From: an uncultured delta proteobacterium
GTDB lineage: Bacteria > Desulfobacterota > Binatia > UBA9968
Length of the DNA: 64,000 nucleotides
Reading direction: 5' to 3'
NCBI GenBank assembly: GCA_963737905.1
Contig: CAVTUQ010000004.1
Span: 1-64,000, forward strand
Shown here: positions 1 to 64,000 of the stretch, in pieces
Numbering within the stretch: the stretch's first letter is position 1
Layout of the letters: every line of letters begins with the position of its first letter
Position numbers and translations under genes: made by a program
Notes under the pieces: model-generated
Seen by the model: the letters and a program-made list of their open reading frames with translations, nothing else
Database searches by the model: none
Told to the model about the DNA's origin: nothing

Positions 1-2011
1 CCTCACGCCCGGCGGTTACTAACGGCTCCAACGGCACGGACGGATCCAGAGGATTTTTTCTCCGTGCCGCCTCGAGGTAGCGCTCGGCGTCTTCCGGTAG
101 CATCAATCCTTCTTTGACGAGATCGTCGACCGCACGTTTCACGGCCTCAATGTAGACCGCGTGGCTCGCATAGCGCTCTTCAATCGAGAGACGTGGATCG
201 CCGCTCTTTTCACGCTCCGCTCTCGTGCGCGCGAAGGTAATGATACAGCCGTTGGTGGAAAGCAGCTCGCCCTCGGCGAAGCCTGCTTTGCGTAGTGCCC
301 AGCCTAAGTAGGTCCCTAGCGGCACCTGCATGTCGGGGTAACGTACTCCGCCCATGTCGTTGCCGTCGGCATCAACTTGCGGAACCTGGACAGGATATTC
401 TTTACCTTCCACTGCTTCAGGCGGGAACATACTGATGATTCCACGATCGAAGTCCGGGCCGTAGTTCCAATATGGCAACCGACTAGGAGTGGCGGGAAGA
501 TTGACACCTGGAATTTTCGGAAAGCGTTTCAGCGCTTCTTCGGGAGATACCAACGTTCCATCCGACCTTTTTGGGATACGACTCGGCGGCGGCGGTTCGC
601 CGGTAGTCGCCCAATGATCCATCAGCGCAAAGCAGGCGCGCAGAAACGGTTGCGGCGAAATATTGTTCGGCGGCAGCTGGCCGATCCAACGGGGGTTATC
701 GGCTGCTATCGCTGCGTGAGGCATGCCGGCAAGGGCGTACATGCGCACGGTCGGCGGAATCTCGACGTCGCTTCCGTCCCGCGGGTCGGTGTGAGTCATT
801 GAACCGTGCCGTTCCCAATATTCGCCCGCTGTATGGCTATGAATGACCAACGGATCGGTATCTGGGCGCTTGAGCACGCTATCCAGCTTTCCGGAACACG
901 GGTCGGGGACAGGCGTAAAAGTGAACGGGTAGCGCTCCGATGGCCAGGAATGCTCTTCATGTTGACGCGGGTAGCGCCCGATCTGAGCGAAGCGCATGTT
1001 GAAAAAAAGGCGTCCGACGCCGGTGTGCGTCAGCACCGCGTCGAAAACTTTGCGGCCCTTCGCATCTCGGTTCCAGCCTTCATAAACATATTCGCGGACG
1101 ACGCGCCCGGCGAGAGACGCGCCGTAGCCGTAGGCTTTGTCGACAAAACCTGCGAGCGGGTTCGGGGCGCCGTTTGCGTCCGATTCACCGTGGCGCAAGA
1201 ACGCGATAAGATCGCGCAACCCGAGGAAACCAAGGCCCATCACCCGGGAGCCTTCGGTGTCGTAAATCAATTCGTAGATCCAGCCTGGCTTGAAACCGCC
1301 CTTGACGTAAAGATCGGTGCTGGAAAGACTAAGTTCCACCTTGCCGTCCGTGTCCTTAGCTTTTGCCAACTCCCATTCACCGTCGGGCACAGGGACTCGC
1401 CGATCGGCCTCCTTCTCACGCACGGTGAGAGTCGCGTTGGCTCGATTGAGCACCGGATAGCATTGAATGTTGGCTGCGCCGCTCACTGGCATCGAGAGGA
1501 TGCTACGCTTATCGGAAATGAATTCCTGCCGGACCCGGCCGCGAAGAGGCCGGCCGTTTTGACGCGCCTCCGGCAAGAAGGCAACGAGATTGTTGCGGGT
1601 GTAAATAAGGTCGCCCTGCCAACCACACCACACGACCGTATAGCCCAGTCGATTGAGGAAACCATTACCGGCGTAGCTTTGCTTGGAGAGATCCGCACCG
1701 CCTCCATCGTTCAACCGGTTGAATGCGCCGCGATTGCCGCGATTGGAAAAATCGAACAGCAGGCGGCGGTTGCCGCGGTTTAAATCCACTGGTTTGACAA
1801 CGTCGAGAACGGCCTTGAACTCCACTAGGCCTTCAGCATTTCGTGGCGCCAAGTCCAAGTCCACGACGAATGGGAGACCATTTTCATCAGGATCGATAGC
1901 AAAGGACACCATTCCCAACAGACGTTCATAGGGGCCCGCACTACCGAAAGAGACACCCTCTGCGAAAGGCGTTTTGCTGTCAAACTCGATGCGAATTTGA
2001 TTGCGTGACAT
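1..2011 (-). CDS. Alpha/beta-hydrolase-domain protein (tannase-like, about 670+ aa); 3' end runs off the window
   Basis: Absent from the ORF track because it has no stop in the window. Hand translation from ATG 2011 (AAGGA RBS upstream) gives MSRNQIRIEFDSKTPFAEGVSFGSAGPYERL...NRGNR...GYTVVWCGWQGDL...GASLAGR...VPQVDADGNDMGGVRYPDMQVPLGTYLGW...DPRLSIEERY, open to position 2. Confidence 0.85.
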   Translation of the reverse strand, partial: MSRNQIRIEFDSKTPFAEGVSFGSAGPYERLLGMVSFAIDPDENGLPFVVDLDLAPRNAEGLVEFKAVLDVVKPVDLNRGNRRLLFDFSNRGNRGAFNRLNDGGGADLSKQSYAGNGFLNRLGYTVVWCGWQGDLIYTRNNLVAFLPEARQNGRPLRGRVRQEFISDKRSILSMPVSGAANIQCYPVLNRANATLTVREKEADRRVPVPDGEWELAKAKDTDGKVELSLSSTDLYVKGGFKPGWIYELIYDTEGSRVMGLGFLGLRDLIAFLRHGESDANGAPNPLAGFVDKAYGYGASLAGRVVREYVYEGWNRDAKGRKVFDAVLTHTGVGRLFFNMRFAQIGRYPRQHEEHSWPSERYPFTFTPVPDPCSGKLDSVLKRPDTDPLVIHSHTAGEYWERHGSMTHTDPRDGSDVEIPPTVRMYALAGMPHAAIAADNPRWIGQLPPNNISPQPFLRACFALMDHWATTGEPPPPSRIPKRSDGTLVSPEEALKRFPKIPGVNLPATPSRLPYWNYGPDFDRGIISMFPPEAVEGKEYPVQVPQVDADGNDMGGVRYPDMQVPLGTYLGWALRKAGFAEGELLSTNGCIITFARTRAEREKSGDPRLSIEERYASHAVYIEAVKRAVDDLVKEGLMLPEDAERYLEAARRKNPLDPSVPLEPLVTAGRE

Positions 2012-29152: not shown

Positions 29153-31552
29153 ATGGCTAAAATCGCAAAACCGCCCACTCAGCCTTATCCCGACCTCACC
29201 ATTCTCGAAGATATCAGCACCTTGATCAGCCATTCGCGTGATCTCCAACAGACCCTCAATAGCATCGTGGCTACGGTGGCGGAACGGATGGAAACCGAGG
29301 TTTGCTCCATCTATATTCTCGACCGCCAGAACAAACGGCTCACCCTGCGCGCGACCATGGGACTGGACGAGGAGTCCGTAGGCAAGGTGTCCATGGGCAC
29401 GGGGGAGGGCCTAACGGGACTAGTCATTGAGAGAATGAAGCCGGTGATGGTCGTCGATGCCCTAAAGCATCCTCGTTACAAATACTTTCCGGAAACCCAC
29501 GAAGAACGCTTTCACTCCTTTCTTGGCGTTCCGCTCATCGACCAAAAATTACCGCTGGGAGTCCTGGTCGTTCAAACTTCACGGCGACGCGAGTTCTCGC
29601 GGGATGAAATACGTTTGCTGACTACTATTTCGGCCCAGGTTTCAAGCATTCTTATTCAAGCTCGCCTGGCGGATTCGCTGCGGAGCAAAGAGGAGGAACG
29701 TAAGGAATATCACAAGCGGATGGTGGAAGCGCTGCGCAAGCTGCGCTCTTATGAGGGTAGGCGTCGGGAGAAGACCCCAGGGGCACACCATCGCTGGCGC
29801 GGCCGACTGAGGGGTCTCTCCGCCTCTCCGGGTTTTGGCCGCGGCCGCGCCTTCGTTCTCAAACCACGTATGCAAATCAGCGCCATTCAGAAGAAAAAAG
29901 CGAAAAATCCCGAGCGCGAGATGGAGCGGTTCCGCGGGGCTGTCGAAAGAGGCATCGAACAGATAAACGTCGTGAAGCATCGAATGAGCGGCCTCATTTC
30001 AAAAGAGGAAGGGGCGATCTTCGACGTGTACCGGCTCATTCTCGAAGATCCCGCAATTATCCAACAAATCGAAGCTCAAATCCGAAAGGAACAAGTGATC
30101 GCCGAATACGCCATCCGGGTCGTGTTCGAGCAATACCTCCAGTCGATTGCGCAAATCGATGATGCCTATTTGCGCGAACGAACCACGGACGTCAAAGATG
30201 CGGCGCAGAGACTTTTGGAGAACCTCTCGGGCGCAACTACTCAGCACATCGAAATTCCCGAAGATGCTGTCTTGGTGGCAGAGGATCTTTCACCGGCCGA
30301 TCTCAGTATGCTTGAAGGGGACCGGTTTCGCGGCATTGTTCTGGCTACGGGCGGCGTCACCACTCACGCGTCGATTCTGGCGAAATCCTTTGAAATTCCT
30401 ACTGTAGTGGCCGTAGAGAATTTGCTGGAATCGGTTCATCAGGGAGATGCCCTCGTTGTCGATGGTAACGCCGGTGTGGTCTACGTCAACCCCAGCCAGG
30501 AAATCACCCGTGAATATGATCGGCTGGTGCGTGATTATGCCGACCTTAATCGCGAGCTGGAGGAACTGAAGGATGAACCCGCGGAAACTATAGACGGCCA
30601 CCGGGTCTCGCTCTATGCCAATATCGGTCTCTTAAGCGATATTGCTTTTGCGCATATGCACGGAGCCCAAGGGGTGGGCTTGTATCGCACGGAGATTGCG
30701 TTTCTGGCGCACCGAGATTTTCCCAGCGAAGAGGAGCAATACTCCCTGTATAAGCGAGTGGTCGAGGGAATGGCAGGAAAACCGGTGACCATCCGGACCC
30801 TGGATATCGGCGCTGATAAATATCCCTCTTACATACGAAGCCCGAGCGTCGAGCCCAATCCGTTTCTAGGATGGCGCTCTATTCGTATATCGCTTGAGGT
30901 TGAAGAGGTCTTCAAAACCCAGCTAAGAGCGATCCTCAGGGTGGGTGACCTCGGCCGGGTTAGAATGCTCATACCCATGGTATCGAGCTTGGAGGAGATA
31001 TTCAAAATCAAAGAACTGGTGGCGGAAGCCAAGGAAGAACTTCGTCACGAAGGTACGCCCTTCGACCGGCAGATGGAGCTCGGGATTATGGTGGAAGTCC
31101 CTTCTGCGGTGCAGCTCGCTGATCGCTTTCTCCGGGAGGTGGACTTCCTGAGTATTGGTACGAATGACCTGATTCAATACATACTGGCCGTCGATCGGAG
31201 CAACCGGCGAGTTGCTGACCTGTACGAGCCACTGCATCCCGCCGTGCTGTCCGCTTTGCAGACGACAATCGAAGCGGGCAAAAAGGAAGGGAAGCGAGTT
31301 GGAATGTGCGGCGAAATGTCGGGTGACCCGCTTTCTGCCCTACTGCTATTGGGAATGGGACTCGAGGAGTTCAGTATGGGCTCCCTATACGTCCCCGTGA
31401 TCAAGAAAACCATTCGGTCTGTCACCTATCAAGCGGCGAAATCGGCTGCACAAATAGTTCTTGAGATGGATACGGTGGGGGAGATCAAGAAGTATCTTTT
31501 CGAACAAATGCGCGAGTTGGGCATGGTGGAGCTGTTAGAGATGTACCATTGA
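29153..31552 (+). CDS. ptsP: GAF-domain phosphoenolpyruvate-protein phosphotransferase (EI-Ntr)
   Basis: N-terminal GAF (EVCSIY, GEGLTG, HPRYKYFPET), TTHASILA phospho-His, GLYRTE, SIGTNDL, GMCGE. Confidence 0.92.
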   Translation: MAKIAKPPTQPYPDLTILEDISTLISHSRDLQQTLNSIVATVAERMETEVCSIYILDRQNKRLTLRATMGLDEESVGKVSMGTGEGLTGLVIERMKPVMVVDALKHPRYKYFPETHEERFHSFLGVPLIDQKLPLGVLVVQTSRRREFSRDEIRLLTTISAQVSSILIQARLADSLRSKEEERKEYHKRMVEALRKLRSYEGRRREKTPGAHHRWRGRLRGLSASPGFGRGRAFVLKPRMQISAIQKKKAKNPEREMERFRGAVERGIEQINVVKHRMSGLISKEEGAIFDVYRLILEDPAIIQQIEAQIRKEQVIAEYAIRVVFEQYLQSIAQIDDAYLRERTTDVKDAAQRLLENLSGATTQHIEIPEDAVLVAEDLSPADLSMLEGDRFRGIVLATGGVTTHASILAKSFEIPTVVAVENLLESVHQGDALVVDGNAGVVYVNPSQEITREYDRLVRDYADLNRELEELKDEPAETIDGHRVSLYANIGLLSDIAFAHMHGAQGVGLYRTEIAFLAHRDFPSEEEQYSLYKRVVEGMAGKPVTIRTLDIGADKYPSYIRSPSVEPNPFLGWRSIRISLEVEEVFKTQLRAILRVGDLGRVRMLIPMVSSLEEIFKIKELVAEAKEELRHEGTPFDRQMELGIMVEVPSAVQLADRFLREVDFLSIGTNDLIQYILAVDRSNRRVADLYEPLHPAVLSALQTTIEAGKKEGKRVGMCGEMSGDPLSALLLLGMGLEEFSMGSLYVPVIKKTIRSVTYQAAKSAAQIVLEMDTVGEIKKYLFEQMRELGMVELLEMYH

Positions 31553-31592: not shown

Positions 31593-31643
31593 TTGATTTC
31601 GTAATCAGAATAGGGTATAAAATAATTCGAACGATCGTTCGAA
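31593..31643 (+). promoter_or_regulatory. Sigma70 promoter with an overlapping perfect 18-bp palindromic operator (TetR/PaaR-like)
   Basis: TTGATT(31593)-17-TATAAA(31616). TTCGAACGATCGTTCGAA at 31626-31643 covers the predicted +1. Confidence 0.75.
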
Positions 31644-31667
31644 CACCACCTCCTGAAGGGATTCGTT

Positions 31668-32774
31668 ATGGGTAAAATCTCTACTTTTGATGATTGGATT
31701 GATAACTTTCGGCAATGGCAAAAAGATATCGGCTACGATCCGGAACTGCTGGGTGACTACACGTTCGAAACCAAGCTGGGCGAGTTGCACAGCCCGGAAA
31801 TTGAGTTCGGAGATTTCAAGGGACAGCGCAAATGGGAGCGTATTGGCCAAATCCCGAATCAGTCGATCCGCGATGCTCTGATGAATCTAATCGTCTATCA
31901 GGGGGACACCGAGTTCGCATCGGTGGAACAACAAAAAAACTTGCTAGATACCGCGCCCACGGAATACGATCGCCAGGCGCTTACCCGGGTGAACAGTGAG
32001 GAGATGCGCCACGGGTGGCAAATGTGCTACTTGTTGGTTAATTATTTTGGTGACTCGGGAAAACTTGAGGCGAGAAAGCTCCTGGAACGGAGAGCATTCA
32101 GAGGGGACCGGCTTCTAGGTTCTTTCAACGCACCGGTCAATAACTGGCTGGACTTTTTTACGTATACGGAATTTGTTGACCGCGATGGCAAATATCAGTT
32201 AACCATGCTGAGCCATTCCGCCTTTGCCCCCTTGGCCGAAAGCGTCACCGCGATGCTGAAGGAAGAATTCTTCCACATGTTTACCGGCCACACCGGCTTA
32301 ACGCGAATTTTGAGAGCCGGAAAAATTCCTCTTCCCATCGTGCAAAAATATTTCAATAAATGGCTGTCAACGGCTTACGATCTATTCGGTACGGATCATT
32401 CGTCGTCAGCGAACTGGTCCTATGTTTGGGGATTGAAAGGAAGATTTGATGAGCATGAGGCCAAAGTTGCTGCGGACAAGAACAAATTGAATGATCTGGC
32501 CCGCGATCACTATCTTACCGAATGCGCTAAGCTTATCGATCAGCTCAACCAACTGGTTCCGGAAGGACAACCCAGGCTCTACGCTCCGCACCTGTATTTT
32601 AACCGTTCCATCGGCGAGCATGTCGGTAAGACTTACAGTGTCACGGGTGAACTATTATCATCCGAAGCCTACAAGAAGCATCTAGCGGAAGTTCTTCCGA
32701 CCCCTGAGGATGAGAGAATATTGAGCGAAATTATCAATGGGAAAGACTGGGTTACGCAGATACAAATGAATTAG
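31668..32774 (+). CDS. BoxB/PaaA-like di-iron aryl-CoA epoxidase subunit (short BoxB-like form)
   Basis: QGDTEFASVEQQ, EEMRH, WLDFFTYTEFVDRDGKYQL, EEFFH, QKYFNKW..DLFG, FNRSIG. Two ExxH motifs. Confidence 0.82.
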   Translation: MGKISTFDDWIDNFRQWQKDIGYDPELLGDYTFETKLGELHSPEIEFGDFKGQRKWERIGQIPNQSIRDALMNLIVYQGDTEFASVEQQKNLLDTAPTEYDRQALTRVNSEEMRHGWQMCYLLVNYFGDSGKLEARKLLERRAFRGDRLLGSFNAPVNNWLDFFTYTEFVDRDGKYQLTMLSHSAFAPLAESVTAMLKEEFFHMFTGHTGLTRILRAGKIPLPIVQKYFNKWLSTAYDLFGTDHSSSANWSYVWGLKGRFDEHEAKVAADKNKLNDLARDHYLTECAKLIDQLNQLVPEGQPRLYAPHLYFNRSIGEHVGKTYSVTGELLSSEAYKKHLAEVLPTPEDERILSEIINGKDWVTQIQMN

Positions 32775-32811
32775 GCACCCAGATAATTCCGTCAGCTACG
32801 AGGAGAGGTTT

Positions 32812-33135
32812 GTGAAAACGCTTTGTCTCGTCTGTCAAAACGTGGATTGCAAAAATAGAGGCTCGGAGCAACTCATGGCCGAACTTCAGAAGCGAGTTGA
32901 AGCTAAAGGGCTCGCCGATGTCGAAGTAAAACCCTACATGTGTTTCGGGGCCTGCCAGGAGGGACCCAACATCGTCCTCTATCCTGAAAAAAACTGGTAT
33001 GCCGGGGTGAAAGTCGATGACCTTGACGAGATCACGGATCGTCTTGCCGGCGGCCCTCACGTCCAACGCTTGGACACCATCGATTCCTCGTTGAAAGAAC
33101 TCATCTATCAACTTCTTGACACAGGGGTGTTTTAA
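32812..33135 (+). CDS. Thioredoxin-like [2Fe-2S] ferredoxin (NuoE C-terminal-like)
   Basis: CxxxxC ... CFGACQEGPNIVLYP..WY. AGGAG RBS and GTG start. Confidence 0.88.
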   Translation: MKTLCLVCQNVDCKNRGSEQLMAELQKRVEAKGLADVEVKPYMCFGACQEGPNIVLYPEKNWYAGVKVDDLDEITDRLAGGPHVQRLDTIDSSLKELIYQLLDTGVF

Positions 33136-33138
33136 GTC

Positions 33139-34401
33139 ATGGAGGGTATTCTTTTCCCTCACGCTGTGGTCGAGGGACGAGAAGGATTAAAGGAGTATCA
33201 GGCACGCGGCGGATACGCCGGCGTTGCTAAAGCGATCCAGTCCACCCCCGAGGATATCATCAAAGAAGTCGCCGACGCCGGTCTTCGAGGTCGCGGCGGC
33301 GCAGGGTTTCCCACCGGGAAAAAATGGTCCTTCACGCGCGAATGCCCTGAACAACCACGGTACCTAGTTTTAAATGGCGGGGAGGATGAGCCCGGTAGCA
33401 AAAAGGATCGGATGCTCATGGAGCATCTCCCTCACCTCGTGATTGAAGGTGTGATTCTTAGCGCCTATGCGATCGGGGCATCCAAAGCTTACCTTTACAT
33501 TAACGCGAATTACGAAGCGGCGATAAATAGCATCAATGATGCGTTGACCGAGGCCAAAGCCGCCGGCTACTGGGGTGACAACGTGCTGGGAAGTAATTTT
33601 ACTCTGGACATCGAGCTCAAACCGGCACCCCACAACTACGTTGCCGGTGAAGATACCGCAGCCCTCGAGGTAATCGAAGGCAAAAAAGCTTGGCCGCGCC
33701 AGAAGCCTCCGTTTCCGGTTACGGTCGGGCTCTTCGGCAAACCCACGGCGGTCAACAACGTGGAGACTCTTGCCAATGTGCCGCCGATCATTTTGCATGG
33801 GGCCGAGTGGTACCGCAAATTTGGCACTCCCGAAAGCCCAGGCACGATGATCTTTTCGCTGAATGATGACGTCAATCGTCCGGGGGTTTACGAGCTCCCC
33901 TTCGGCACGCCGCTCAGGTATTTGATCGAAGAATGTGGCGGTGGAATGAAGGGCGGCAAAAAGATCAAAGCCATCATGCCTGCGGCGCCGTCTTCGGCTT
34001 TCCTCCCGGCAGACAAGATGGACACACCGTTGGATCACAACTCGATGCGGGAAGCGGGTTCGGGACTCGGTTGCGGTGTCGTGCGCTTGATTGACGAAGA
34101 AACCTGTATCGTAGAAGAAGTGTTAAAGATCTCCGAATTCTTCACCGTCGAATCCTGCGGCCAATGCCCCGCCTGCCGGATGGAAACCAACACCCTTACG
34201 TCATTGCTCAAGAAAGTTCAGCAGGGACAAGGCGGCCAACCGATACTCGAGCAATTCGGAAAAATCCTCGCTTTTAACAAAGGTAAAGGCTTCTGCAATC
34301 TCATCGCCATGCCCGGTCCACCCATTGAAAGCGCCCTCAAACTTTTTCCCGAAGATTTCGAGGCCCACCTCGCTACCGGCAAATGCCCCGCGGCTAATTA
34401 A
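33139..34401 (+). CDS. NuoF/HoxF-like NAD(P)H-binding FMN-[4Fe-4S] protein (not in a nuo operon)
   Basis: LRGRGGAGFPTGKKW, EDEPGSKKDR, YVAGEDTA, NNVETL, ESCGQCPACR..C. Confidence 0.9.
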   Translation: MEGILFPHAVVEGREGLKEYQARGGYAGVAKAIQSTPEDIIKEVADAGLRGRGGAGFPTGKKWSFTRECPEQPRYLVLNGGEDEPGSKKDRMLMEHLPHLVIEGVILSAYAIGASKAYLYINANYEAAINSINDALTEAKAAGYWGDNVLGSNFTLDIELKPAPHNYVAGEDTAALEVIEGKKAWPRQKPPFPVTVGLFGKPTAVNNVETLANVPPIILHGAEWYRKFGTPESPGTMIFSLNDDVNRPGVYELPFGTPLRYLIEECGGGMKGGKKIKAIMPAAPSSAFLPADKMDTPLDHNSMREAGSGLGCGVVRLIDEETCIVEEVLKISEFFTVESCGQCPACRMETNTLTSLLKKVQQGQGGQPILEQFGKILAFNKGKGFCNLIAMPGPPIESALKLFPEDFEAHLATGKCPAAN

Positions 34402-34599
34402 AGCAGACGCAGGGTCATGCTTTCGTTTCATTTTTCAGTCCGCTCAGGCTGCAATGGCATCTCCATCAACGATTCGTTCGTTTGACGGTTTTGATGGGCG
34501 CTTGATAGTATCCGCCTTGTTCAAATCGAGGCGCATAACAGGAACTTCGAGTTCTTTCGCTCGCTCTTCGGCGCGGCGAAGAATTGAAAGGAGCCAATC

Positions 34600-35430
34600 A
34601 TGAGACTCGCACCGATCCACTGGCCCCACGATGCAAAAATTGCTGTCAGCTTCTTCGTAGCCTTTGAAGCTTTTGAAAAATATTCGCAGTACCGCCAAGG
34701 CGGCGACAAACCGGATTATGCGTCTCTCGCCTACGGCGAATACGGAGGCAAGGCGGGTATCTGGCGCATCATGGACGTGCTAAACCGCAACGGCGTTAAA
34801 GGCACTATCGATACCAACGGCCGTATCGCCGAAGACTTTCCTGATGCGTTGAAAGAACTCCATGCCGCGAGTCATGAAATCGTTGGCCACGGTTGGGTCA
34901 ATGACACAGCTCTGTCCTCGCTCGATGCCGTTAAAGAAAGAACTTTGATCAAACGAACATTGGACGCCATCGCATCGGTCACCGGCAAACGTCCCGTGGG
35001 TTGGGTCAGCCCCGGGCATAGAGTCAACGAATATACATTCGGCAACTTCGTCGACGAAGGAATATTCTGGACTGGAGATCTGCCAGGACCTGACATTCCA
35101 CAGCACCGCATTGTCAATGGCAAACCCTTGATCATCATGCCGCGGCTCGATTACGCCAATGATCTATCGCTCATCTTTAACGCGAAAAATCCCGCCCGGG
35201 TTTATTTTGACAGCTTCAAAGCAGCCTTTGATTGTCTCTACGCGGAGGGCCAGGCGGGCGCGCCGAAGCTCATCGATTGTCTCGTGCACGCGCATATCGG
35301 CGGCAGACCCAACATTATAGGGGTGTTCGAAGAATGCGTCCGCTATGCCAAGGGTTTTCCCGAGGTATGGTTCGCGACCAAAGGGGAAATCGCCAAATAT
35401 TACCTCGACACTTACGTCACTAAATCGTAA
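34600..35430 (+). CDS. Polysaccharide deacetylase (PuuE allantoinase-like) family protein
   Basis: WPHDAKIAV, EYGGKAGIWRI, HEIVGHGW, GWVSPG, HAHIGGRP, VWFAT. Confidence 0.85.
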   Translation: MRLAPIHWPHDAKIAVSFFVAFEAFEKYSQYRQGGDKPDYASLAYGEYGGKAGIWRIMDVLNRNGVKGTIDTNGRIAEDFPDALKELHAASHEIVGHGWVNDTALSSLDAVKERTLIKRTLDAIASVTGKRPVGWVSPGHRVNEYTFGNFVDEGIFWTGDLPGPDIPQHRIVNGKPLIIMPRLDYANDLSLIFNAKNPARVYFDSFKAAFDCLYAEGQAGAPKLIDCLVHAHIGGRPNIIGVFEECVRYAKGFPEVWFATKGEIAKYYLDTYVTKS

Positions 35431-35444
35431 CCGGAGGAACTGAG

Positions 35445-36626
35445 ATGGCATCGGGTGGAAAAGACGAAAAATATCTCGAGGGACTGAAATCTGGCGAGCT
35501 TCTCTTGAAACTCACCTGGGACGAATGGCTCACGTTGAGCGCACCGTTTGAGAACGTAGACTTTTCAGTCGAAGACGTCACGGCGCGCTACAACAGAAAC
35601 GGTTACGATTGGGATATGCATGGCACGCTCTATACCCCCGCGAAAGAAGTTAACTCCCAGCGTGCCTTCGTATGTTTCCACGGCGGAGCGGGCAGCGAAA
35701 AGATCATGGACCTCACGCCGGACGGCAGACCCGGTTTGGCCCGGGTTCTAGCTTCCCAAGGCTTCAAAGCTCTAGCTCTCACTTACCCGGGTCACTATCC
35801 TCCCGGAGGCGTTTGGAAAAACCCTATCCCGGAACGCATGCCGGTTTATCTCATGGACCACGAACTCCCTATCGAAGAGATCAAAGATCGAAATTTGAAG
35901 TGCACGTTCAACACCATTCTCCAGGGGGCGGGACTATTGACGGATCAACATCTGAGCGGCCGGGAAATCCTGGGATTTGGCCATTCCACGGGCGGACCTA
36001 TGGCAGCCCATCTGACGCGCTTTTCGAAAAAGACAAAAGTCATCGGACTGGTTGGATTTGGCAGCGGCGGTCCAGATGGCTGGCGACTCGAGTGGAGAAA
36101 CAAGACTGGCGCGGAAAAATATGTGGAAAAGCCGGTCGATCATGTGTCGCGACGGTCGCCTGATTCTTTTCGTGAGTCGGGCTACGTCGATCCACCGGAC
36201 CTTACGCCCTGGGGAGGTGCCGACGATTACTTTCGACTCATCAGCCCGCTGCGCTCCCAGATGAAAACCAGCCTGTGCGACAACCAGCACAACGCAGCCG
36301 TGGGAATTCTCGAAGAATATCCCAAGCGCACGGGCCTCCCGCGGGAAGAATACTTCGATCACCTGGAAGAGCCGGATCCGAATTGGCTCAAAACCATCAG
36401 AGTTCTTCTCACCGCCGGCGAGAATGACAAAGGCCACTGGGTCAGAGGCGATCGTCTGCAAGATAAGCGGGAAATGTTCATGGGCGCAAAGTACGCGGCT
36501 GCCACTCGCGGAGCGCACGTCGTGCTAATACCCCGTTACGGGCATGTGGGTTATGCCGAGCTTCACAACGAGAAGATCGCTTACCTGTGGCTCTGGGCGG
36601 TTAAATCAGGTTATTTCGATAGCTAA
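35445..36626 (+). CDS. Uncharacterised alpha/beta-hydrolase-fold protein
   Basis: FHGGAGSE, GHSTGG, GENDKGH, YGH. GGAGG RBS. Confidence 0.7.
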   Translation: MASGGKDEKYLEGLKSGELLLKLTWDEWLTLSAPFENVDFSVEDVTARYNRNGYDWDMHGTLYTPAKEVNSQRAFVCFHGGAGSEKIMDLTPDGRPGLARVLASQGFKALALTYPGHYPPGGVWKNPIPERMPVYLMDHELPIEEIKDRNLKCTFNTILQGAGLLTDQHLSGREILGFGHSTGGPMAAHLTRFSKKTKVIGLVGFGSGGPDGWRLEWRNKTGAEKYVEKPVDHVSRRSPDSFRESGYVDPPDLTPWGGADDYFRLISPLRSQMKTSLCDNQHNAAVGILEEYPKRTGLPREEYFDHLEEPDPNWLKTIRVLLTAGENDKGHWVRGDRLQDKREMFMGAKYAAATRGAHVVLIPRYGHVGYAELHNEKIAYLWLWAVKSGYFDS

Positions 36627-36700
36627 CCTAACAATCACGCACAGGAGGACATCACGGTCTCTGACTTTAATAAATGGCTTTTCACAAAGGAGAGATAAGA

Positions 36701-37789
36701 ATGCATACAAAAATAATTGCCAGTTCTGCGTCTCCATTTGCACTCATAGCCGCAATCCTCTTATCGACCGTCGCGGCATCCTATGGCGCTCAGAGCAAAC
36801 CCTTATCCGTGGCCGATCTCGCCTTTTACCAAGGCGCCGATCGCGAGAAAATCCTCCTGGAAGGCGCTAAAAAAGAAGGGCAAGTGACTTTCTACACGTC
36901 AAACACTTGGGTCGCCGGTCCAGTGTCCCAGGAGTTCGAGAAAAAGTACCCTTTCGTTAAAGCCAATGTATGGCGCAGCGATTCCAAATCATTGCTGAAA
37001 CGGCTAACGGAAGAGGTGGCGGCCGGGCGGTTTATTGGCGATGTCGTTGAAAGCAGTCCTGAGTATATGGAGATCCTTATGAGGAGCAACATCCTCCAAG
37101 AGTATTTGTCCCCGGAACTGAGTGCCTACGACGACGATGCAAAAATCAAAGGGAAGAGGGGCGTCTATGCGTGGACCAACCGAGAGATCTATATCAGCCT
37201 GGGGTTTAACACCAAGATCATAGCTCCCGCGGAAGCGCCAAAAACCATCAAGGATTATCTCGACCCTAAATGGAAAGGAAAAATGTCCATCGCCGGGACC
37301 ACCACGGGGACCCAGTGGGTCGGAGCTCTCATGGAGTCCATGGGTCGCGAGTTTCTGGAAAAACTAAGCGCGCAAGAAATCAATGTTCAGAATATGTCCG
37401 GCGCGGCTTTGTCCGGGCTGGTTGCCTCCGGCGAAGTCCCTTTGTCGCCCACCATCTTCAATTCCAACATCTTCACCCATAAAGAAAAAGGTGCCCCGGT
37501 CGAATGGAGACCGCTGGATCCTGTTATAGCGGGAGTGGGCACTTCAGGCATGGTCCTCAATGCACCCCATCCTCACGCTGCCCTGCTTTTTCTTGATTAC
37601 CTCCATTCCAAACTCGGGCAGCAGGTCGCCATGAAGGGCGGCCTCAGTTCGGCGCGCAATGACATCGGTTCTCTGGAACAGAAGTTCAAGAAGGTCTACA
37701 TCGAAAGCCAATACACGCCAGAGGAATTCGAGAAGAAAATCGAGGAATGGGAAAGCTTGATGCGCAAGCTTTTCATTCGGAAACGCTAG
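36701..37789 (+). CDS. ABC extracellular solute-binding protein (AfuA/FbpA-like)
   Basis: Signal peptide, GAKKEGQV, FEKKYP, DPKWKGK, GAPVEW, APHPHAALLF. AAGGAG RBS. Confidence 0.85.
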   Translation: MHTKIIASSASPFALIAAILLSTVAASYGAQSKPLSVADLAFYQGADREKILLEGAKKEGQVTFYTSNTWVAGPVSQEFEKKYPFVKANVWRSDSKSLLKRLTEEVAAGRFIGDVVESSPEYMEILMRSNILQEYLSPELSAYDDDAKIKGKRGVYAWTNREIYISLGFNTKIIAPAEAPKTIKDYLDPKWKGKMSIAGTTTGTQWVGALMESMGREFLEKLSAQEINVQNMSGAALSGLVASGEVPLSPTIFNSNIFTHKEKGAPVEWRPLDPVIAGVGTSGMVLNAPHPHAALLFLDYLHSKLGQQVAMKGGLSSARNDIGSLEQKFKKVYIESQYTPEEFEKKIEEWESLMRKLFIRKR

Positions 37790-56092: not shown

Positions 56093-56779
56093 TTAATTTT
56101 CGACCTGCCACCGTCCGCGTTTCGTAGGATGACGTAAGGCCGAGTGCAGTCGCTTGAGAAACATTCGACGCGATAGCTCTTTGGCGCCGAGGTTCAACAT
56201 GTGTTCCGTGGTCATTTGTGAATCGATAAAGTGAAACCCCCAATTCTTCAGCTTCTCCACCAGAGTCGCGAGAGCCACTTTCGAAGCATCGCTTTTCAAA
56301 TGAAACATCGATTCGCCAAAAAAAGCCTTGCCTAATGAAACGCCGTAGAGCCCGCCGGCCAGTTTTTCCCCCAACCAACTCTCGACCGAGTGGGCGTAAC
56401 CCAGACCGTGAAGGTTGATGTAAGCCTCCTGCATCTCTTTCGTGATCCAGGTACCGTTCTGCGTTTCGCGGGGCACCACTGCGCAGGCCTGGATGACCTC
56501 TTCGAAAGCATGATCGAACGTGACCTGAAAAACCCCTTTTTTAAGGGTCTTACCTAAACTTCGAGAAATCTTGAAGTCTTCAAGATCGAGAATTAAACGA
56601 GGATCCGGCGACCACCAAAGGATGGGTTGGTCGTCCGAATACCAGGGAAATATTCCCACGCGATAGGCCTCCAGCAACCTCTCATGGGACAGGTCCCCGC
56701 CGACGGCGAGCAATCCGCTCGGATCGGCATAGTCCGGCGGAGGAAAAATCGGCTCGTCTACCAATCGAAATATCGGCAT
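56093..56779 (-). CDS. aat: Leucyl/phenylalanyl-tRNA-protein transferase
   Basis: GLLAVGGDL, AYRVGIFPW, WWSPDPR, GTWI, AHSVE, GGLYG, FFGESMF, ASKVAL. Confidence 0.95.
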   Translation of the reverse strand: MPIFRLVDEPIFPPPDYADPSGLLAVGGDLSHERLLEAYRVGIFPWYSDDQPILWWSPDPRLILDLEDFKISRSLGKTLKKGVFQVTFDHAFEEVIQACAVVPRETQNGTWITKEMQEAYINLHGLGYAHSVESWLGEKLAGGLYGVSLGKAFFGESMFHLKSDASKVALATLVEKLKNWGFHFIDSQMTTEHMLNLGAKELSRRMFLKRLHSALRHPTKRGRWQVEN

Positions 56780-56884
56780 CGAATCATTTTAACCTTCTCC
56801 CTTTCGTTTTTCATTCTCGGTCTAGCGGTTGCAAAACCACCTCTTCCGAGACTATGCTTTTTATGGTTGCAGAAAGGAAATGCT

Positions 56885-57271
56885 ATGTTCAAACGCATCG
56901 ACCATGTGGCCATTCACGTCTCCGACCTAAACCGCTCCGTCGCTTTCTACGAAGAACACTTCGGTTTCAAACAATACTTCCAACACGCGGCGACGGGTGG
57001 ATTGCAGATCGCGTATTTGAAACTCGGCGATACGGTCTTGGAACTGACGCACAAAACCGATGGCGCGATGTTGGGTTTTCACTTTTGCCTGGAAACGGAC
57101 AATTTTGACGCAACGGTATCTAAGCTACAGCAGGATGGGGTACAATTAATCCGTGCACCTCACGACACCGCCGCACGCGAACCGAGAGAGAACGGCTGGC
57201 GTCGGGTCGTTTTCGGAGGCCCGGATGGGGAGCAGATTGAGCTGACGAGGATGAACCACCGTGACTCGTGA
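56885..57271 (+). CDS. VOC/glyoxalase family protein (3' end probably extended by a 1-nt insertion)
   Basis: MFKRIDHVAI, LEL, FHFCL, GPDGEQIEL. Removing one A gives the ending ELRG*. Confidence 0.85.
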   Translation: MFKRIDHVAIHVSDLNRSVAFYEEHFGFKQYFQHAATGGLQIAYLKLGDTVLELTHKTDGAMLGFHFCLETDNFDATVSKLQQDGVQLIRAPHDTAAREPRENGWRRVVFGGPDGEQIELTRMNHRDS

Positions 57272-57314
57272 TCGTTTCTCGTGACCATTCACGAACACGA
57301 ATCACGAACACGAA
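57260..57314. repeat. Inverted tandem-repeat hairpin (CGTGA x3-4 / CACGAA x4)
   Basis: CGTGACT CGTGAT CGTTTCT CGTGA ccat TCACGAA CACGAAT CACGAA CACGAA. Confidence 0.75.
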
Positions 57315-57330
57315 AAGAGGGAAAAACAAT

Positions 57331-57639
57331 ATGTCTGAGAAACCAAATTCCACAATCCAGGTCACGTGTCCTTGCTGCAGCGCCATGTTAACAATCGACC
57401 CGACCCTGCCTGCGGTACTGAGTCACAAGCTGCCGCCAAAGCCACAACTCATCGCCGAGTTAAAAAGCGCCGCCCAGTTTGTCAAGGAAGAAGTCACCCG
57501 CCGCGATGAAAAGTATCAGCAGATCGTTGAAGCAGAAAAGAACAAATCGAAGGTGCTGGAGGCCAAATTTCAAGAGCTGCTCAAGAAGGCCAAAGAAGAG
57601 CCGATCACAAAGCCACTGAAAGACATCGATATAGACTAG
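57331..57639 (+). CDS. Small hypothetical protein with a CPCC motif and a coiled coil
   Basis: VTCPCCSAMLTID, a charged helical C-terminal half, and PLKDIDID end. GAGG RBS. Confidence 0.75.
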   Translation: MSEKPNSTIQVTCPCCSAMLTIDPTLPAVLSHKLPPKPQLIAELKSAAQFVKEEVTRRDEKYQQIVEAEKNKSKVLEAKFQELLKKAKEEPITKPLKDIDID

Positions 57640-63322: not shown

Positions 63323-63341
63323 CTTGCTGGTACTGATAGTT

Positions 63342-64000
63342 ATGCCTGAGCAAACATACTTAGAAGCCATCCGCACCGGCTTGCACGAAGAGATGAGCCG
63401 CGACCCATCGGTTTATCTTTTCGGTGAAGACGTCGCGCTGGGCGGGCCCTTCGGTGTTACCACCGGACTCGCCGAAACTTTCGGCAAGAACCGCGTGGTC
63501 AATACCCCCATCAGCGAAGGGACAGTGATGGGACTCGCCATCGGTGCGGCAGCTGCCGGACTCCGGCCGGTGGTGGAGATCATGTTCATCGACTTCATTA
63601 CTTTGGCAATGGACCAGCTCGTCAACCACGCCGCCAAGCTGCACTACATGTCCGGCGGGCAACTGAAGATTCCCCTAACAGTCCGCGTCCAGTGCGGCAT
63701 CAGTGGCAACATGGGCGCGCACCATTCGCAAAGTCTCGAATCCTGGCTCGCTCATGTGCCGGGCTTGAAAGTGGTGATGCCTTCGAATCCCGCAGATGCC
63801 AAAGGGCTTCTCAAGGCCGCCATCCGAGACGATAACCCTGTCGTGTTTATCGAGCATCGGGGTATCTATTGGACGCGAGGCCAAGTCCCTGAGAGCGACG
63901 ATCTCGTGCCCATCGGCAAGGCCGCAGTCGCGAGAGAAGGCGAGGATCTGACCATTGTCGCTACCGCCAAGTTGCTAGCCGCGACTCTGGAAGCCGCCGA
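63342..64000 (+). CDS. TPP-dependent dehydrogenase E1 beta (AcoB/PdhB-like), runs off the window
   Basis: Not in the ORF track. Hand translation gives MPEQTYLEAI..FGEDVALGG..NTPISE..EIMFIDF..DQLVNHAAK..AHHSQ. Confidence 0.9.
   Translation, partial: MPEQTYLEAIRTGLHEEMSRDPSVYLFGEDVALGGPFGVTTGLAETFGKNRVVNTPISEGTVMGLAIGAAAAGLRPVVEIMFIDFITLAMDQLVNHAAKLHYMSGGQLKIPLTVRVQCGISGNMGAHHSQSLESWLAHVPGLKVVMPSNPADAKGLLKAAIRDDNPVVFIEHRGIYWTRGQVPESDDLVPIGKAAVAREGEDLTIVATAKLLAATLEAA

Follow-up and report, generated by a model that had tools for sequence, protein, structure and literature searches.

A short BoxB-like di-iron oxygenase encoded with a NuoE-related ferredoxin and a NuoF-like flavoprotein: a candidate three-component aryl-CoA epoxidase in Binatia-type soil bacteria

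Introduction

BoxA and PaaE, the reductases of the BoxAB and PaaABC(D)E systems, are of the ferredoxin–NADP reductase type, and the cofactors of BoxA are FAD and a [4Fe-4S] cluster. PaaABC(D)E is a CoA-ester di-iron epoxidase that in some bacteria is under the control of the TetR-type regulator PaaR, and BoxAB is represented by solved structures from Azoarcus evansii (3per, 3pm5, 3q1g); the available part of PMC5489048 names BoxB and PaaAC as two architectures of CoA-dependent aromatic ring epoxidase. Here we report on a compact three-gene operon of a soil bacterium, located in a stretch of 64,000 nt (positions 1 to 64,000 of contig CAVTUQ010000004.1, assembly GCA_963737905.1 of an uncultured delta proteobacterium; hereafter the window), in which the gene for a short BoxB-like oxygenase is followed by genes for a [2Fe-2S] ferredoxin and a stand-alone NuoF-like flavoprotein (Table 1). 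The oxygenase shares with the BoxAB system its fold, six identical iron ligands and five of the eight other active-site positions compared, but the putative reductase of the operon consists of an FMN/[4Fe-4S] NuoF-like protein and a separate [2Fe-2S] ferredoxin. With PaaABC(D)E it has in common the Pfam family PF05138 and an operator that fits the PaaR consensus, and genes resembling PaaF, PaaG, PaaH and PaaJ adjoin homologues of the oxygenase and occur elsewhere in the genome. It differs in that the oxygenase scores only 39.1 bits on the PaaA model (cut-off 280), is structurally remote from PaaA, and has neither PaaB or PaaC neighbours nor a PaaE. The ferredoxin and flavoprotein share the FMN loop, the cluster cysteines and the NuoE-type C-x4-C...C-x3-C pattern with complex I and with the HoxEF, FdsBG, HydBC and NfnBC modules, but they belong to no nuo, hydrogenase or formate dehydrogenase cluster. 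SSO1313 (4mud) and unassigned PF05138 proteins belong to the same superfamily as the oxygenase, but are far shorter (235 aa) and functionally uncharacterised.

On balance we consider it probable, though not by much, that the operon encodes an NAD(P)H- and O2-dependent three-component aryl-CoA epoxidase of the BoxB type under a PaaR-like repressor. An earlier sequence-only reading of the window had taken it for a third architecture of aryl-CoA epoxidase; a BoxB-type enzyme, the missing usual partners and a conserved ferredoxin/flavoprotein pair are indeed what was found, but this wiring is confined to one clade. The description of the three genes given there is accurate: the genes are co-oriented, with gaps of 37 nt between oxygenase and ferredoxin and 3 nt between ferredoxin and NuoF-like gene, and all of the motifs named, QGDTEFASVEQQ, EEMRHGW, DRDGKYQL, EEFFH, NGGEDEPG and YVAGED, are present. 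Literature searches found no published description of a short BoxB or of an oxygenase with a NuoF-type reductase, nor is the system mentioned in the available parts of the main texts of 10.1101/2025.11.25.690425 and PMC13186573, to which, supplementary files aside, the check extended; powering by a NuoF-type protein looks like a so far undescribed way to drive such an enzyme.

A BoxB-like oxygenase outside the BoxB family

By score, by length and by its partners the oxygenase falls outside the BoxB equivalog family; even so, it very probably functions like BoxB. It belongs to the Pfam family PaaA_PaaC (PF05138; 43.3 bits, cut-off 28.5). On the NCBIfam equivalog model for BoxB, TIGR03225, it reaches 241.7 bits (E 1.5e-71), which is under the cut-off of 499.1; other short forms reach 100–234 bits, and the full-length BoxB proteins P0157 and P0151, to which the oxygenase is about 40% identical, reach 908.5 and 672.2 bits. 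Its closest solved relative is nevertheless BoxB of A. evansii (3per, E 3.6e-55), followed by SSO1313 (4mud) at E 1.6e-18. An AlphaFold model of high confidence (pLDDT 94, pTM 0.91) superimposes on the BoxB structures 3q1g, 3pm5 (the benzoyl-CoA complex) and 3per with query-normalised TM scores of 0.88–0.90, the next structural matches being PaaA (TM about 0.53) and SSO1313 (0.51).

The resemblance extends to the active site. In an alignment of 27 rows (the window protein, 20 loci and six database proteins, including BoxB P0151 and P0157) the di-iron ligands E82, E112, H115, D171, E200 and H203 are invariant throughout, and pairwise alignment with 3per maps all six onto the ligands of A. evansii BoxB, numbered E120, E150, H153, D211, E240 and H243 in the part of PMC5489048 available. 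The same part of that source names Q116, T119, S123, F193, F203/F206 and T210 as residues that position benzoyl-CoA. Beyond the ligands, eight further BoxB active-site positions were compared: five are retained (Q116 as Q78, T119 as T81, S123 as S85, F193 as F153, F203 as F163), and three are changed: P121 to F83, F206 to Y166 and T210 to V170. These changes (to F, to Y and to V or I, respectively) are fixed across the aligned short forms, and the first of them is the TEP-to-TEF difference to which the sequence-only reading had drawn attention.

With 368 aa against about 470 aa, the protein does not have the full-length BoxB architecture. All aligned short forms are without four peripheral stretches of BoxB: the extended N-terminus together with an insert of about 24 aa, two further inserts of 19 aa and about 25 aa, and the C-terminal extension. 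Ligands, fold and length thus agree with the earlier characterisation of a BoxB-type di-iron protein roughly 100 aa shorter than BoxB. Because the BoxB cut-off is failed, four segments are missing and three active-site positions differ, the substrate may be another than that of BoxB.

Conservation of the oxygenase is very high, at 85–100% identity within the 120 best-matching database clusters and about 60% from phylum to phylum, and the family is widespread and highly conserved in soil metagenomes. A quick tree of 38 rows (the window protein, 24 of 80 loci, ten database proteins and three small paralogues from the same genome) recovers the Binatia-type clade as monophyletic (SH-aLRT 97); it places true BoxB on a long branch and leaves undecided whether that branch falls inside or beside the short forms. 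The long-form relative P0154 (495 aa) has 40% identity with the window protein and a BoxB-model score of just 157 bits, and may represent a third length class of the family. In public databases the family is annotated as "benzoyl-CoA 2,3-epoxidase subunit B". Genome-based inferences of aerobic benzoate breakdown in Binatia and Acidobacteriota thus depend on a protein that does not pass the BoxB family test and comes without BoxA and BoxC.

The ferredoxin and the NuoF-like flavoprotein

The ferredoxin matches PF01257 (30.7 bits, cut-off 24.8), while on the NuoE model TIGR01958 it scores 30.2 bits against a cut-off of 142.4 and aligns with model positions 72–147 of 148 only; a clostridial-type 2Fe-2S ferredoxin model scores higher than NuoE, at 46.7 bits. 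Its cysteines C8, C13, C44 and C48 (C-x4-C-x30-C-x3-C) are the same in all 21 rows, and the C-terminal tail IYQLLDTGVF is near-invariant. The N-terminal domain of NuoE, which forms much of the interface between NuoE and NuoF, is absent.

The NuoF-like protein contains the Pfam domains Complex1_51K (152.6 bits), NADH_4Fe-4S (58.6) and SLBB (35.6), can be aligned over its whole length with NuoF, HydB and NfnB (E 1e-109 to 1e-100) and scores 444.7 bits on TIGR01959, under the equivalog cut-off of 558.65. Like the canonical copy, it retains the FMN loop GRGGAGFPTG and four [4Fe-4S] cysteines (CGQCPAC, FCNL). The altered motifs noted previously are real and are fixed features of its clade: NGGEDEPG and GED are found in 28 of 28 orthologues, against NADESEPG and GEE in the canonical copy. 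Three NuoF paralogues are present in the genome, namely the canonical one (contig C2, 616.4 bits), the operon copy and one more. No other nuo genes accompany the operon copy in the window, as had been stated before: there are no nuo-type Pfam families among the 46 of 51 non-overlapping ORFs that were scanned, the ORFs outside the scan lying at 2-2011(-), 32755-33162(-), 56627-57268(+), 57268-57636(+) and 63324-63998(+).

Modelling of the complex, which the sequence-only reading had proposed as a check, lends weak support to a contact between oxygenase and ferredoxin. The docking score is 0.46, against 0.00 for the best of three controls; 58 of the 80 solved complexes and two of the 110 mismatched pairs pass the mark applied, and those past the mark with scores of 0.60 or less comprise seven of the 80 solved complexes and both of the passing mismatches. 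With our own alignments as input, the docking runs share at least 85% of their contacts and the partner has a pLDDT of at least 86.

Conservation of the gene order and its limits

One genome per species was scanned, and relatives of the oxygenase turned up in at least 589 stretches; the best 80 loci were examined. At 73–93% oxygenase identity, 28 of 29 loci have the order oxygenase–ferredoxin–NuoF, and in the remaining one the contig ends just past the ferredoxin gene. These close loci are mostly labelled Binatia or "delta proteobacterium". Their flanks vary: ptsP lies upstream only in L009–L027 and TctABC in L036, and a gene for Leu/Phe-tRNA protein transferase (aat) lies downstream in L028, L029, L030 and L036, the four divergent loci scanned there, with ileS and lspA beyond it in L029. 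Among 301 sampled genomes of the window's phylum, searched at E<=1e-130 for the NuoF-like protein and E<=1e-80 for the oxygenase, both genes occur in the same three genomes and neither occurs in the other 298; the three positives, from two families, have the two genes on one contig with the ferredoxin gene between them. This co-occurrence is no statistical test, because the positive genomes are related. The ferredoxin/NuoF-like pair is, on these two counts, a conserved and co-occurring operon partner of the oxygenase.

The two other cassette-bearing genomes of the phylum sample each encode a further paralogue of the oxygenase (G595, C39:423-1514; G340, C143:6771-7859), with about 60% identity to that of the window and located on contigs other than those with the NuoF-like gene of the cassette. 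Five loci with the same ptsP–operon synteny and 82–89% identity (L010, L011, L016, L017 and L022) have been assigned to Verrucomicrobiia, Udaeobacter, Limnocylindrales and Eisenbacteria bins, which looks like mis-binning of contigs rather than transfer.

The linkage does not reach beyond this clade. Among the 51 more distant loci (59–66% oxygenase identity; Acidobacteriota and others), a NuoF-like gene is present in none of the fetched flanks and the ferredoxin gene in only one (L061); eight of these loci have less than 2 kb of downstream sequence. Four distant-locus genomes gave no match to the ferredoxin, and their NuoF matches are just 39–45% identical. The linkage on which the sequence-only reading depended therefore stands for the close clade but fails for the distant homologues, and the wiring belongs to one clade, not to the short BoxB family as a whole, which clearly uses other electron donors also.

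The one distant locus with a ferredoxin is of particular interest. In this Acidobacteriota genome, G005, the oxygenase gene is followed by a first ferredoxin gene and preceded by a divergent gene for a BzdR/BoxR-type regulator (315.5 bits on NF006015, cut-off 204), and 817 kb away a two-gene unit between pfk and polA encodes a second ferredoxin (58% identical, with the tail MIFQLLDAGLY) and a NuoF-like protein (56% identical, carrying NGGEDEPG and GED). At one site the ferredoxin type goes with the oxygenase and at the other with the NuoF type, so that the split links it to both. A NuoF of the NGGEDEPG type was found in G005 only, among 301 Acidobacteriota genomes.

Genes of CoA-ester metabolism are frequent beside the distant oxygenases, with a crotonase in 19, a TetR regulator in 14 and a 3-hydroxyacyl-CoA dehydrogenase in 10 of the 51 loci. 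In L079 the genes run TetR, crotonase, UDG-like, crotonase, oxygenase, ArsC/Spx-like and dehydrogenase; for the crotonase adjoining the oxygenase the highest scores are those on PaaG (215 bits, cut-off 345) and on the alternative oxepin-CoA hydrolase (197 bits), each under its cut-off. A small ORF upstream of the oxygenase gene in Thermoanaerobaculia-type loci was considered and discarded as a shadow ORF: it is arginine-rich, has no Pfam match and is interrupted in a second locus.

Promoter region and operator

The sequence-only reading had given the operon a promoter of its own. The TTGATT and TATAAA boxes are present with a 17-nt spacer in the 115-nt gap between ptsP and the oxygenase gene, but a generic promoter scan, which requires the second hexamer to have T as its sixth base, called none in that gap. 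Boxes of the type TTGA(T/C)(T/C)T lie at the matching place in most of the related loci inspected, and the pair in the window may well function as a promoter.

Just downstream, and followed on its 3' side by the ribosome-binding site GAAGGGA, is a perfect palindrome (Table 1) that is unique in the 6.7-Mb assembly: both the 18-mer and its 14-mer core occur at a single site, the latter against 0.55 expected. In a position-weight scan of the genome it scores 37.2, the next-best site (17.8, on contig C13) falling inside an ORF, and neither the exact nor the position-weight scan revealed a second convincing operator in the genome. The form AACGNNCGTT is found within 130 nt upstream of the oxygenase start, mostly at 33–45 nt, in 27 of 28 related loci, which hold 31 such sites in their total of 329,314 nt. 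The palindrome core CGAACGATCGTTCG at 31628–31641 fits 5'-CNAACGNNCGTTNG-3', the operator consensus of Sakamoto et al. for PaaR of Thermus thermophilus as quoted in PMC6651687, the available part of which describes PaaR as a TetR-family regulator of the paa operons of this organism.

Of the 51 distant loci, 14 contain a related site, (C)GAACGAACGTTC(G), and 13 of these have a TetR gene at the head of a TetR–crotonase–oxygenase cluster; the site precedes the TetR start by 20 nt in L079, and elsewhere it lies close to the mechanically called start. The solved relatives nearest to this Acidobacteriota TetR are unnamed TetR-family entries and 3vpr, which we take to be PfmR of T. thermophilus. In the genome of the window the sole TetR similar to it (38.7% identity) is encoded on contig C12, and the region upstream of its gene is free of such a site.

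A half-conserved copy of the operator core, TCGAACGCTCGTTC, at C5:68339 (L123) in the divergent gap upstream of nuoA-nuoB-nuoC-nuoD was rejected as being at chance level, because the 12-mer core is found six times in the genome against 7.4 expected. Two copies of a longer palindrome, TT(G/A)CGTGAACGCTCGTTCTA(C/G)CTCACGCAA, lie 4.5 kb apart at C32:57690 and 62220, with flanks unrelated to the operon operator.

All three genes are covered in part by contigs from four libraries of soil RNA. The oxygenase–ferredoxin junction is bridged by record 3 of X13 and record 20 of X17 and the ferredoxin–NuoF junction by record 21 of X17, and two contigs run from the 3' end of ptsP across the stop codon into the oxygenase gene. 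Some bins are without cover, for example 34397–34507 in all four runs; to these, and to the ends of contigs, we attach no reading.

Partner genes in the genome

The absence of BoxA, BoxC and PaaE, which had been noted for the window, extends to the whole assembly (6.7 Mb in 46 contigs, 87.5% complete). The best profile matches there are 23.5 bits for BoxA (cut-off 459.2), 75.6 bits for BoxC (cut-off 712.3) and 20.1 bits for PaaE; a second BoxB-like gene was not found in the assembly either, and no genes for PaaB- or PaaC-type subunits adjoin the oxygenase gene. A gene of the benzoate-CoA ligase family is present in the genome (544.9 bits, above the cut-off of 375.25). On contig C12 (147943-151941, L106) a TetR gene of the TetR_C_24 type is divergent from genes for PaaF-like and PaaG-like crotonases, in a cluster that also includes a split PaaH-like dehydrogenase and a 3-oxoadipyl-CoA-thiolase-like gene, all of them under the specific cut-offs; this cluster, whose upstream region contains no operator like that of the window, could be a lower pathway for ring-opened CoA esters.

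Three small stand-alone PaaA_PaaC proteins of about 240–250 aa are encoded elsewhere in the genome (Table 1); they score 70–82 bits on PF05138 and resemble the uncharacterised SSO1313 type. At C35:33366-35800 (L105 7373-9798) there is a crotonase that has 59–62% identity with the crotonases next to the oxygenase in L079 and L038, directly followed by an aldehyde dehydrogenase, a pairing that recalls BoxC/BoxD or a split oxepin-CoA hydrolase with its dehydrogenase.

Proposed mechanism and alternative explanations

The analysis shows the gene content, the cofactor-binding residues, the fold, the co-occurrence and the conservation of gene order and operator; for the direction and partners of the electron flow, the substrate, the product and the repressor we infer the following scheme. 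The NuoF-like protein would take a hydride from NAD(P)H onto FMN and split it into single electrons via its [4Fe-4S] cluster, and the 107-aa [2Fe-2S] ferredoxin would ferry these to the 368-aa di-iron protein, which would activate O2 and most likely epoxidise the ring of benzoyl-CoA or of a close aromatic CoA ester. A TetR/PaaR-type repressor responsive to acyl-CoA, bound to the 18-bp palindrome over the promoter, probably blocks expression. PaaR itself reportedly, in the work of Sakamoto et al., responds to phenylacetyl-CoA. All three proteins are small and probably soluble.

A number of findings weigh against this scheme. With its score under the BoxB cut-off, the three changed active-site positions and the loss of four BoxB-specific segments, the oxygenase departs from BoxB itself. 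Around the operon there is no linked BoxC or CoA ligase, the flanks of Binatia-type loci being housekeeping or unrelated genes, and a gene for the cognate repressor was not found in the window's genome. Stable binding of the ferredoxin to the NuoF-like protein is not assured, since the former is without the N-terminal domain of NuoE. Then there are the distant homologues, with no NuoF-like gene in any of 51 flanks, no ferredoxin and only dissimilar NuoF matches in four of their genomes, and hence other electron donors; in G005 the pair alone between pfk and polA would also fit a general-purpose reductase. Finally, the RNA-library contigs are compatible with carry-over of DNA, which cannot be excluded, and are no proof of transcription.

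Several of these points could be taken to mean that the electron chain is the proposed one and that the chemistry is another: hydroxylation or desaturation of some other acyl-CoA, or mainly the reverse reaction, deoxygenation. Besides the low BoxB score and the missing segments, the fixation of the three pocket changes across the short forms would fit, as would the want of BoxC in the genome and the neighbours in Acidobacteriota (crotonase, 3-hydroxyacyl-CoA dehydrogenase and TetR), which are of generic beta-oxidation types and under the specific cut-offs, and epoxide deoxygenation by reduced BoxB is discussed in the available part of PMC5489048. We nonetheless regard other chemistry as unlikely, because the retained active-site positions include residues reported to orient the benzoyl ring, the fold fits the benzoyl-CoA complex 3pm5, a BzdR/BoxR-type regulator adjoins the oxygenase in L061, the operator is of the PaaR type and a benzoate-CoA ligase family gene is in the genome. 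The operator, being of a type responsive to acyl-CoA, speaks equally against the notion that the three genes form an NAD(P)H oxidase or peroxidase, a rubrerythrin-like stress defence reducing O2 or H2O2 without an organic substrate. In its favour are the very strong sequence conservation, the housekeeping neighbours and the want of linked catabolic genes in the Binatia-type loci; against it are also the retained substrate-orienting residues and whole fold of BoxB, and the crotonase, TetR and BoxR-type regulator genes next to homologues, and we think it very improbable.

The remaining alternative concerns the wiring, namely that the ferredoxin and the NuoF-like protein are a general NAD(P)H:ferredoxin oxidoreductase that shares an operon with the oxygenase by chance in one lineage. 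The solitary pair of G005, between phosphofructokinase and DNA polymerase I, agrees with this, and so do the distant loci, 51 of 51 being without NuoF-like gene and 50 of 51 without ferredoxin gene, and the several Binatia-type cassettes that lie among housekeeping genes (aat, ileS, lspA). Chance association appears improbable to us, however, given that pair and oxygenase occur in the same 3 of 301 phylum genomes and are adjacent in all three, that the only one of 301 Acidobacteriota genomes with an NGGEDEPG-type NuoF, G005, also has the oxygenase and a ferredoxin of the same type, that a single promoter/operator and gaps of 37 and 3 nt point to co-expression, and that two other NuoF paralogues serve other duties.

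If a NuoF-fed di-iron oxygenase, as preferred here, is real, it would be a new coupling of pyridine nucleotides to O2 activation and a new role for the NADH-dehydrogenase module of complex I. A wider generalisation is possible but doubtful: the short BoxB-like proteins, which occur in at least 589 species genomes, chiefly of Acidobacteriota and Binatia-type soil bacteria, might constitute a third class of aromatic-CoA ring epoxidase, independent of BoxA and PaaE, within which the Binatia-type clade would have recruited a complex I-derived flavoprotein and a NuoE-derived ferredoxin as a private electron chain. Were this true, much of the aerobic dearomatisation of benzoyl-CoA type in soil would proceed via an undescribed enzyme system and a downstream route free of BoxC.

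Genomic surroundings of the operon

Table 1. Features of the operon region in window coordinates, and small paralogues elsewhere in the genome (contig:coordinates)
Feature	Position	Strand	Description
Promoter-like boxes	31593..31621	+	TTGATT 31593-31598, 17-nt spacer, TATAAA 31616-31621
Putative repressor operator	31626..31643	.	Perfect 18-bp palindrome TTCGAACGATCGTTCGAA, between -10-like box and ribosome-binding site
Oxygenase gene	31668-32774	+	368 aa, short BoxB-like di-iron oxygenase
Ferredoxin gene	32812-33135	+	107 aa, thioredoxin-like [2Fe-2S]; matches C-terminal domain of NuoE only
NuoF-like gene	33139-34401	+	420 aa, stand-alone FMN/[4Fe-4S] flavoprotein
Small PaaA_PaaC proteins	C12:49922-50638, C11:27947-28705, C26:18588-19310		Own genome

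Directly upstream of the operon, at 29153–31552, the window encodes a GAF-domain phosphoenolpyruvate-protein phosphotransferase of the PtsP/EI-Ntr type (626.6 bits on NF008283), and ptsP in this place is syntenic in the closest loci. After the operon, at 34600–37789, follow genes for a PuuE-like protein of the polysaccharide-deacetylase family, a 393-aa alpha/beta hydrolase, which has no NCBIfam match, and a solute-binding protein, a trio whose synteny is confined to the closest loci. A promoter-like site at 34482–34511 suggests that this downstream trio is a separate transcription unit.

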